Counted from the first letter of the stretch, positions 296 through 5,360 are shown. The stretch is DNA of 5,360 nt from Escherichia coli (GCF_003334315.1 NZ_QOWR01000095.1), one strand, 5' to 3'. Notes: generated by a model not told the origin, from the sequence alone. Translations and numbers: made by a program.

Positions 296-330
296 AAAAA
301 AGGCACCGGGGGAATCGGTGCCTTTTTATT
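296..330. terminator. Bidirectional intrinsic terminator shared by convergent yafE and mltD
   Basis: Perfect inverted repeat GGCACCG (302-308) / CGGTGCC (316-322) with a 7-nt loop, flanked by an A-tract (296-301) and a T-tract (323-330). Either strand therefore reads as a GC stem followed by a U-run. It lies 3 nt after the yafE stop and about 11-19 nt from the mltD stop. Confidence 0.75.
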
Positions 331-340
331 ATCTGGTTTG

Positions 341-1699
341 TCAGGAATCTGGCATGTTGTTGTTTTTCACAAACAACGTCAGCTTATCGCCTGGTTGCAG
401 ATTCGCAGTGTCGCTGTTCCAGCGCATCACATCTTTGATGTTCACGCCGTGGCGTTTAGCAATGCTTGAAAGCGAATCGCCTTTGCGCACACGATACGTA
501 ATGCTATCGCTGTTGTTTGCCAGTCGCTGTGCGCTACTGCCTGCACCAATCGTCAAACTTTGGCCTGGCTTCAGCTTAGATCCGCGCAGTTTGTTCCACT
601 GCTGCAAATCTTTGGTGCTTACGCCGAGACGTGAAGCGATACTTGAAAGCGTGTCGCCAGAGCGTACGGTGTAAACACGGCTGTTAAGCGGCGTATTGTC
701 GGCAACCAGCGTCGACTGTACAGCAGCAATTTCGCCTGAAGCCAGAGATTCACGCAGTTGATCTGCATGCTTCTTTGGCACCATCACGTACTGCGGGCCA
801 CTTGCGCCCAGCGTGGAGCCTTTTACGCCAGCGTTGAATGTCTTCAGCTTGCTGACGGAAATCCCCGCCATATCTGCTACCTTCGCCATTTCAACCGGGC
901 TGCTCAGGTGCACACGCGCCAGAGCACGGCTTTCATCGGTCGTTGGCAGACGTACGCCATAACGCTTGCTGTTTTTGAGAATATCACTCAATGCCAGCAT
1001 TTTAGGCACGTACTGCTTCGTTTCCTGCGGCAACGGTAACGACCAGAAGTCCGTGGATTTCCCACGCGCTTTGTTGGTTTTAATTGCCTTCATGACCCGA
1101 CCTTCGCCGCTGTTATAAGCCGCTACGGTCAGAAGCCAGTCGCCGTCAAACATTTTGTTCAGACGCTGCATCATATTCAGCGCGGCAGTTGTTGAAGCAA
1201 CAACATCGCGACGCGCGTCATAATTGCGGGTCTGTTTCAAACCATAATTGCGCCCCGTGCTCGGAATGATCTGCCAGATGCCTGCGGCATTGGCGCCAGA
1301 CGTTGCGTGAGGATCAAAAGCGCTCTCCACTATGGGTAGTAGTACCAGTTCCATAGGCATGTTACGTTTTTTAACTTGCCCTGCTATCCAGTACATATAC
1401 GGCTCTGCCCGTAAAGTTACATCGTGGAGATAGCTCTTATTGCGTAAATATTTCTGTTTCTGTTCGCGAATCCGGTCATTTTCCGGAATTCCCATCTTTA
1501 GCTCGTCGCCAATGAAAGCCCACAAGTCACCATCTGGCGCGATAGACGTCCCATCGTCCATCCATCGTGCCTGACTTGTAAACTTTGCTGCTTCCCCTTG
1601 ACCAGCTGCAGAAAGGCTCTGTGCGTGCTGTTGAACGTTGCCGGTACTCTGGCAACCCACGAGCAGGACAGAGGCGAGTAATATCGCTTTTGCCTTCAT
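341..1699 (-). CDS. mltD: Membrane-bound lytic murein transglycosylase D (lipoprotein with a lytic transglycosylase domain and two C-terminal LysM repeats)
   Basis: 452-aa ORF. N-terminus MKAKAILLASVLLVGC has a signal peptide and LVGC lipobox. The lytic transglycosylase catalytic region is present (LPIVESAFDP ... AAYNSGEG). Two LysM-like repeats occur at the C-terminus (YTVRSGDTLSSIASRLGV..., YRVRKGDSLSSIAKRHGV...). Length and sequence match E. coli MltD as I recall it. Confidence 0.95.
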   Translation of the reverse strand: MKAKAILLASVLLVGCQSTGNVQQHAQSLSAAGQGEAAKFTSQARWMDDGTSIAPDGDLWAFIGDELKMGIPENDRIREQKQKYLRNKSYLHDVTLRAEPYMYWIAGQVKKRNMPMELVLLPIVESAFDPHATSGANAAGIWQIIPSTGRNYGLKQTRNYDARRDVVASTTAALNMMQRLNKMFDGDWLLTVAAYNSGEGRVMKAIKTNKARGKSTDFWSLPLPQETKQYVPKMLALSDILKNSKRYGVRLPTTDESRALARVHLSSPVEMAKVADMAGISVSKLKTFNAGVKGSTLGASGPQYVMVPKKHADQLRESLASGEIAAVQSTLVADNTPLNSRVYTVRSGDTLSSIASRLGVSTKDLQQWNKLRGSKLKPGQSLTIGAGSSAQRLANNSDSITYRVRKGDSLSSIAKRHGVNIKDVMRWNSDTANLQPGDKLTLFVKNNNMPDS

Positions 1700-4674: not shown

Positions 4675-4751
4675 GGAGCGGTAGTTCAGTCGGTTAGAAT
4701 ACCTGCCTGTCACGCAGGGGGTCGCGGGTTCGAGTCCCGTCCGTTCCGCCA
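4675..4751 (+). tRNA. aspV: tRNA-Asp (anticodon GUC), 77 nt with encoded CCA
   Basis: GGAGCGGTAGTTCAGTCGGTTAGAATACCTGCCTGTCACGCAGGGGGTCGCGGGTTCGAGTCCCGTCCGTTCCGCCA. Acceptor stem GGAGCGG/CCGTTCC, GTC anticodon in a CCTGTCACG loop, and a T-arm GGTTCGAGTCC. The locus name comes from its position immediately downstream of dnaQ. Confidence 0.97.
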
Positions 4752-4907: not shown

Positions 4908-4930
4908 GGTAATGACTCCAACTTATTGAT
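4908..4930. repeat. IS1 terminal inverted repeat (right end)
   Basis: GGTAATGACTCCAACTTATTGAT at the element boundary, the characteristic ~23-bp IS1 end. The partner repeat lies outside the window. Confidence 0.85.
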
Positions 4931-5360
4931 AGTGTTTTATGTTCAGATAATGCCCGATGACTTTGTCATGCAGCTCCACCGATTTTGAGAACGACAGCGA
5001 CTTCCGTCCCAGCCGTGCCAGGTGCTGCCTCAGATTCAGGTTATGCCGCTCAATTCGCTGCGTATATCGCTTGCTGATTACGTGCAGCTTTCCCTTCAGG
5101 CGGGATTCATACAGCGGCCAGCCATCCGTCATCCATATCACCACGTCAAAGGGTGACAGCAGGCTCATAAGACGCCCCAGCGTCGCCATAGTGCGTTCAC
5201 CGAATACGTGCGCAACAACCGTCTTCCGGAGACTGTCATACGCGTAAAACAGCCAGCGCTGGCGCGATTTAGCCCCGACATAGCCCCACTGTTCGTCCAT
5301 TTCCGCGCAGACGATGACGTCACTGCCCGGCTGTATGCGCGAGGTTACCGACTGCGGCCT
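4923..5360 (-). CDS. insB: IS1 transposase InsB (ORF B of the InsAB' frameshift fusion), 5'-truncated by the window edge
   Basis: The minus-strand frame is open from the window end (5360) to TAA at 4923-4925 and encodes ...[145 protein letters not shown]. The track's 125-aa ORF (4923-5300) starts at an internal Met. Confidence 0.93.

Follow-up and report, generated by a model that had tools for sequence, protein, structure and literature searches.

Two LysM modules of ancient tandem origin very probably underlie a diverged direct repeat in Escherichia coli mltD

The window, by which the whole analysed stretch of 5,360 nucleotides of Escherichia coli DNA is meant here, carries the gene mltD on its minus strand, and a diverged direct repeat lies within this gene. 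The gene and the domains that matter for the repeat are as follows.

341..1699, minus strand: coding sequence of mltD (452 aa; stop included) for lytic transglycosylase D, an outer-membrane lipoprotein (NCBIfam NF008050)
1052..1396, minus strand: SLT catalytic domain, residues 102-216, with the catalytic Glu125 (Pfam PF01464, E 3.2e-32)
548..673, minus strand: LysM module A, residues 343-384 (Pfam PF01476, E 1.1e-15, 57.8 bits)
497..547, minus strand: linker between modules A and B, residues 385-401, without self-similarity in the DNA (pLDDT 67-72)
374..496, minus strand: LysM module B, residues 402-442 (Pfam PF01476, E 1.3e-11, 44.7 bits)

The encoded protein matches the NCBIfam equivalog NF008050 over residues 1-452 of 452 with 886.8 bits (cut-off 508) and is 100% identical to the NCBI cluster 'murein transglycosylase D [Escherichia coli]', and in RefSeq the identical region is annotated as mltD, flanked by a gene for a class I SAM-dependent methyltransferase and by gloB. 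The N-terminus reads MKAKAILLASVLLVGC, in which a putative L-V-G-C lipobox can be read directly at residues 13-16; the Pfam model LPAM_MltD matches it with an E-value of 0.53 only. In the catalytic domain, E125 and S126 do not vary in any of 99 homologues, and MltD variants with E125A or E125K are inactive (PMC10931528). The first-pass annotation of this DNA had proposed that the repeated minus-strand segments encode the two LysM repeats of MltD, to be found at about residues 340-385 and 400-445, and this agrees with the equivalog match and with the two Pfam matches at 343-384 and 402-442, both of which cover model positions 1-42 of 43. When NCBIfam and the PDB are searched, LysM segments of multi-LysM proteins match within MltD residues 261-442. 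The full-length AlphaFold2 model (pLDDT 86) contains three consecutive beta-alpha-alpha-beta units, two of which are module A (strand 341-344, helices 351-358 and 362-368, strand 381-384) and module B (strand 397-403, helices 410-417 and 421-427, strand 439-445); the block-mean pLDDT in the regions 341-384 and 397-445 is mostly 83-95, and a disordered linker with pLDDT below 50 lies at residues 328-338.

Outside of mltD, the window contains a hairpin, a tRNA gene and part of an insertion sequence.

297..327, minus strand: terminator-like hairpin, 14 nt past the mltD stop, with 12 pairs, 6 of them G-C, and a T tail
4675-4751: tRNA-Asp, with the IS1 copy beginning about 157 nt downstream
~4909-5360: IS1 copy, cut off by the end of the window (IS1 family transposase in NCBIfam, 126 bits)
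4923-5300, minus strand: IS1 transposase ORF

A/T runs flank the hairpin on both sides. It is situated between mltD and the convergent remnant of a methyltransferase gene and looks like a bidirectional intrinsic terminator. The first ~70-98 bases of the window are foreign to the usual yafE-mltD neighbourhood of E. coli; the best full-window matches begin at base 72, and bases 1-82 and 1-98 match the ends of IS3-family elements with 94-98% identity. The upstream methyltransferase gene, which we take to be yafE, appears to have been truncated by the insertion sequence, its last 80 codons being left as an ORF at 51-293. With IS elements at both window ends, the DNA resembles that of an IS-rich Escherichia or Shigella genome.

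In a repeat search of the window, the best ungapped match joins 415-490 and 592-667 with 56 identical positions out of 76 nt (74%), the start-to-start spacing of the copies is 177 nt or 59 codons, and this pair is the sole outstanding direct repeat within mltD.

415..490: copy 1 of the DNA repeat, promoter-distal, encoding residues ~404-428 in LysM module B
592..667: copy 2 of the DNA repeat, encoding residues ~345-369 in LysM module A, 74% identical to copy 1 at a spacing of 177

A diverged direct repeat at 432-499 and 609-676, offset by 177 bp, had been claimed before, and the claim holds: the strings quoted for it are located at 432 and 609, the segments are identical at 46 of 68 positions (68%), and they represent the same repeat, slightly shifted to the right. 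Within mltD, a 76-nt scanning window was compared at every offset of at least 30 nt, and the next-best one at any other offset had 36 matches, against 56 at offset 177, while after shuffling of the mltD codons (300 replicates) the best one over all offsets had on average 37.6 matches (sd 1.4) and never more than 43. As the observed value exceeds the shuffle maximum as well as the runner-up, the repeat is real and not an effect of composition. On the 177 diagonal, similarity is limited to about 413-493 and fades on either side, and in the linker DNA (497..547) the diagonal falls to 0-4 matches per 9 nt. The repeat DNA spans the first strand and the two helices of either LysM module, so that the similarity does not reach beyond their N-terminal two thirds, and the C-terminal thirds of A and B are more diverged and differ by a one-codon indel, which is why the register there is 174 and not 177. 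When gaps are allowed, modules A and B agree at 80 of 123 nt (65%) overall and at 54 of 78 nt (69%) across the first 26 codons, and their protein sequences agree at 22 of 41 residues; the longest exact match between the repeat copies has only ~10 nt. The equation of the repeat with the LysM modules therefore stands in so far as both copies lie inside modules, but it needs the refinement that the recognisable DNA repeat is a part of each module.

Direct repeats can also be DNA elements in their own right, and the pair could have been a mobile or regulatory element inside mltD, such as a REP/BIME-like sequence, an IS remnant or a pair of protein-binding sites. A direct repeat does exist here and IS elements lie at both window ends, but such an origin is extremely improbable, because the copies are in frame at a distance of exactly 59 codons and fall on the two Pfam LysM matches. 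Furthermore, in 5425 of 5426 complete E. coli genomes the region 341-760 of the window is found in one place (at least 80% coverage and at least 95% identity), there is no Rfam family in 341-1699, the tRNA elsewhere being the sole Rfam match of the window, and the repeat search detected no notable inverted repeat within 415-667. In other genera, the nucleotide similarity of A and B drops to 46-59%, whereas the protein motif stays. The earlier statement that the repeat is neither mobile nor regulatory is thus well supported by the in-frame register, the one place per genome and the lack of an Rfam match.

The repeat also leaves its mark on the opposite strand, where an ORF search finds a frame that overlaps both LysM modules.

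318..674, plus strand: antisense shadow ORF, 118 aa, GTG start

Its translation repeats itself at an offset of 59 residues (SLMFTPWRLAMLESESPLRTRYV versus SLVLTPRREAILESVSPERTV), and it had been correctly noted in the first-pass annotation that the LysM repeat accounts for the periodic look of this ORF. One could turn the argument around and regard the ORF as a real gene for a small, internally repetitive protein, to which the repeat would then belong, as the frame is open for 118 codons in the window and has a GTG start. This is hardly credible, since the equivalent frame contains 2-6 stops in all seven of seven orthologous loci, Salmonella included, has no NCBIfam match and would start inside the terminator-like hairpin at 297-327, and since RefSeq annotates only mltD at the locus and the opposite strand has the 887-bit equivalog match. 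To judge from the sequences of the loci compared, among which it is open just in E. coli, the ORF is a by-product that mirrors the LysM repeat and not a gene. Found together, an in-frame diverged direct repeat and a periodic antisense ORF are a signature of duplicated protein modules and do not indicate a second gene or a regulatory element.

The age of the duplication can be addressed with more distant relatives. A homologue search that lists only relatives of at least 85% identity is of little use for dating, and therefore a library of 50%-identity clusters was used, from which 150 representatives of MltD clusters (P0121-P0270) served as the family sample, and LysM modules were located in them by an HMM that was started from the E. 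coli pair and iterated. The two closest representatives (P0121 and P0122) are 64% and 57% identical to the E. coli protein overall and have the same gloB-mltD synteny. Module A of E. coli shares 0.68 and 0.66 identity with module 1 of these two proteins, and module B shares 0.78 and 0.72 with their module 2, whereas the cross-comparisons give 0.40-0.49, and A and B of E. coli are 0.55 identical to each other in the LysM core. As each module is closer to its positional counterpart than to its sister, the duplication predates the divergence of these lineages. Similarly, an A-type motif, Y-x-V-R-[ST]-G-D-T-[LV]-S-x-I-A-S-R-L-G-V, is conserved in Salmonella, Raoultella, Leclercia, Kosakonia and Kluyvera, and the same five genera conserve a distinct B-type motif, Y-R-V-[RQ]-K-G-D-S-L-S-S-I-A-[KR]-R-H-G-V. 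Judged by such alignments, the positional orthology of modules A and B holds across Enterobacterales.

In the wider family, a protein may have as few as 1 or as many as 12 canonical LysM modules, most often 3 (74 of 146 representatives), and E. coli has 2. Some of the proteins contain near-identical adjacent modules (0.8-0.9 identity), which points to recent duplications in other family members. The LysM array is thus plastic across the family, and the pair of E. coli is old. In comparison with the three-module relatives, module B is most similar to the last module in 53 of 74 cases, and module A is ambiguous, with module 3 as the best match in 38, module 2 in 26 and module 1 in 10; an assignment of A and B to individual modules of these relatives was dropped, since a stretch of 41 residues is not informative enough to tell which module was lost or never gained. 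Among E. coli genomes the pair is stable: a deletion of 177 bp would leave only ~58% coverage of 341-760 and would thus fall below the 80% threshold, and no variant from unequal crossover, with 177 bp lost or gained, was seen among the 5425 matching genomes, all of which reach at least 80% coverage in one place. The positional orthology across Enterobacterales and the stability in E. coli agree with the former proposal of an old intragenic duplication, and it is almost certain that the repeat reflects, at the nucleotide level, two paralogous C-terminal LysM modules of MltD that descend from an ancient in-frame tandem duplication.

With an old duplication, it may be asked why the copies are still recognisable at the nucleotide level. 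At residues that are identical in A and B of E. coli, the same codon is used in 15 of 23 cases, when 8.3-9.0 would be expected from local codon usage (Poisson-binomial P 0.002), and the nucleotide identity between A and B is 0.65 in E. coli, the highest of 8 loci, the seven orthologous loci having 0.46-0.59. In these seven loci the same-codon fraction extends from 5/21 to 14/19. The codon pair CTT-TCA is common to A and B in E. coli, and other synonymous codons are found elsewhere. A function of the shared codons at the RNA or DNA level was considered and found no support, because the synonymous sharing is not conserved across genera and hence gives no sign of selection on nucleotides. The A-B similarity drifts among the loci, and E. 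coli lies at the top of its distribution, which is exactly why the repeat was noticed there.

A second process that could keep the copies alike is gene conversion between the modules. If it acted in short patches in the Escherichia lineage, the nucleotide repeat would be partly young, although the duplication is old, and besides the shared codons and the high A-B identity, two positions in module A are of interest in this context.

565-573: E. coli-specific codons of module A for Lys377-Pro378-Gly379, a clustered multi-nucleotide change to AAG-CCA-GGC
641-643: E. coli-specific codon of module A for Ser353

Of 120 representatives of Enterobacteriaceae, only the E. coli cluster has Ser353 and Pro378, and both are the residue of module B. 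The AAG-CCA-GGC of A stands opposite CAA-CCA-GGC in B, so that the patch matches the CCA-GGC of B, and the other genera compared have AAA-(ATC/GTG)-GGT/GGG instead. When derived changes are counted, 10 of those specific to E. coli are toward the paralogue, 6 away from it and 4 neutral, in comparison with 19 toward, 55 away and 15 neutral in the other five genera, and this bias (10/20 versus 19/89) has a Fisher P of 0.013, which rises to 0.07 if the cluster of 7 nt is counted as one event. The signal is small and post hoc, and there is an ascertainment bias, as the window was flagged by its visible repeat. Leclercia has a similar same-codon fraction (14/19) without the changes of E. coli, and both derived residues also bring module A nearer to the general LysM consensus, so that parallel selection explains them, too. 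The longest exact match between the copies also speaks against conversion, since ~10 nt of identity is far under the usual requirement of RecA-dependent exchange. The same-codon excess and the bias toward the paralogue are therefore at most a weak hint of something that ancient duplication plus protein-level constraint does not fully explain. Conversion in the Escherichia lineage is an unlikely reason for the likeness of the copies, and it is with considerable doubt that one would ascribe, for example, the AAG-CCA-GGC patch and Ser353 to one or more very short templated conversions that partly re-homogenised A and B. If this were nevertheless true, mltD would be a small natural case of micro-conversion between intragenic repeats that are 26% diverged.

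Ancient duplication followed by constraint on the protein is the preferred explanation, and none of the observations contradicts it. On this reading, an in-frame tandem duplication of a unit of ~59 codons, including the linker, gave rise to modules A and B, and purifying selection has since kept the LysM core, Y-x-V-x-x-G-D-[TS]-L-x-x-I-A-x-x-x-G-V-x-x-x-D-x-x-x-W-N, in both modules, while in E. coli many residues common to the two happen to be encoded by identical codons. The DNA copies are still alike because of this selection on the LysM core in combination with the chance sharing of codons in E. coli.

A third unit of the same fold precedes the two canonical modules, adjoins the catalytic domain and lies outside of the DNA repeat.

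776..922, minus strand: sequence-cryptic third LysM-fold module, residues ~260-308

Pfam gives no LysM match at residues ~260-308, yet 92 of 150 representatives of the MltD family conserve this segment, and when a profile of 60 such segments was compared by hhalign with a profile of canonical LysM, the two-helix core aligned with a probability of 78% (E 1.8e-5). The AlphaFold2 model of the segment (pLDDT 85) has a strand at 260-264, helices at 271-278 and 282-288 and a strand at 304-308, and across the segment and full-length models the module has pLDDT values of 85-96. In a Foldseek search against the PDB, the best matches are structures of MltD from Pseudomonas aeruginosa (PaMltD; 8rhe, 8rhf and 8rhi; TM 0.62-0.69), on which the E. 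coli model of residues 250-330 superimposes with an rmsd of 1.1-1.9 A over about 60 aligned columns. The next matches are genuine LysM domains, namely 2mkx (AtlA), 5ylg and 4pxv (fern chitinase), 5bum, 4uz2, 4eby (CERK1) and 4b8v (Ecp6), with an rmsd of 2.3-3.4 A over 45-52 columns and weak E-values of 0.2-0.75, interleaved with poor matches to helix-turn-helix proteins at an rmsd of 8-9 A. For this module, only the profile-profile comparison (78%) and the fold comparison are informative, as pairwise BLOSUM scores of the cryptic region are just 35 with module A and 25 with module B, and hhalign of the cryptic profile with the single sequence of module A reaches a probability of 21%. The LysM1 of PaMltD has likewise been missed by sequence tools, is packed against the catalytic domain and has been called a hallmark of family 1D (PMC11327851). 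By homology with PaMltD, the cryptic module of E. coli probably packs against the SLT domain as well, and following this precedent it is predicted with confidence from the models that the structural LysM count in E. coli MltD is three and not two. The earlier count of two LysM repeats is hence right for the canonical modules, but falls short by the cryptic upstream module as a count of structures. E. coli MltD is usually drawn with just two LysM repeats. In the DNA repeat the cryptic module has left no trace in the repeat search, in which the sole candidate was a match of 12 nt between 566-577 and 839-850; this candidate was rejected as a chance match, as it pairs a KLKPG that follows the WN motif with a KLKTF that precedes the N and is thus out of the LysM register.

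LysM is a module that binds saccharides and peptidoglycan through the GlcNAc-containing glycan backbone, with tandem modules adding affinity, and the LysM modules of PaMltD have been described as mobile peptidoglycan-binding elements (PMC11327851). For MltD itself, the LysM region is needed in vivo according to the literature. Following these descriptions, each module of E. coli MltD, a beta-alpha-alpha-beta domain, would attach non-covalently to the peptidoglycan through its GlcNAc-containing glycan backbone. Modules A and B are placed on flexible linkers behind the cryptic LysM-fold module, which itself directly follows the SLT domain, and they would tether the outer-membrane-anchored MltD to the sacculus and may help to present glycan strands to the active site. 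The best-supported picture is thus that of A and B as flexible tethers that would feed glycan to the SLT cleft, and by analogy with AtlA we infer that their contributions may be additive.

The repeat is an ordinary and already described feature, as the two LysM repeats of MltD and their role in peptidoglycan tethering are documented, and it has little importance beyond correct annotation. What the analysis adds is the partial extent of the repeat in the DNA, the cryptic third module, the variable length of the array in the family, and a weak and unproven hint of lineage-specific homogenisation.

To our knowledge, the LysM of E. coli MltD was the first LysM domain for which a structure was solved. 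Residues 398-445 (365-508 in the window) match the full 48-residue chain of PDB 1e0g without a single difference. PDB 1E0G is the LysM domain of E. coli MltD (Bateman and Bycroft 2000, as cited in PMC11327851 and PMC10931528), and it is therefore the identical object to module B, within which repeat copy 1 (415-490) lies, whereas module A (343-384) is its paralogue with 55% identity over the LysM core. A search against solved structures returned none of E. coli module A. Among whole enzymes, the closest comparison is with PaMltD (8RHE, 8RHF and 8RHI), which phmmer aligns to E. coli MltD over residues 64-384 with an E-value of 3.7e-74, and which has the same order of an SLT domain, a cryptic LysM and canonical LysM modules on flexible linkers, the cryptic LysM being attached to the catalytic domain in its crystal structures (PMC11327851). 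The two enzymes differ in that PaMltD has three canonical modules and thus four with the cryptic one, whereas E. coli MltD has two canonical modules and the cryptic one, which is near the lower limit of the 1-12 canonical modules seen in the family, and in that PaMltD is anchored in the inner membrane, whereas E. coli MltD is an outer-membrane lipoprotein (PMC11327851). More distant parallels are AtlA of Enterococcus faecalis with six LysM modules (PMC4083421, as referred to in PMC11327851) and DipM of Caulobacter with four, which according to these references also carry tandem glycan-binding LysM modules on flexible linkers, and in hydrolases of this type the modules are described in PMC11327851 as additive in peptidoglycan binding. 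AtlA and DipM have a glucosaminidase or LytM catalytic domain instead of SLT and a different copy number of their modules, and outside of LysM they are unrelated to MltD.
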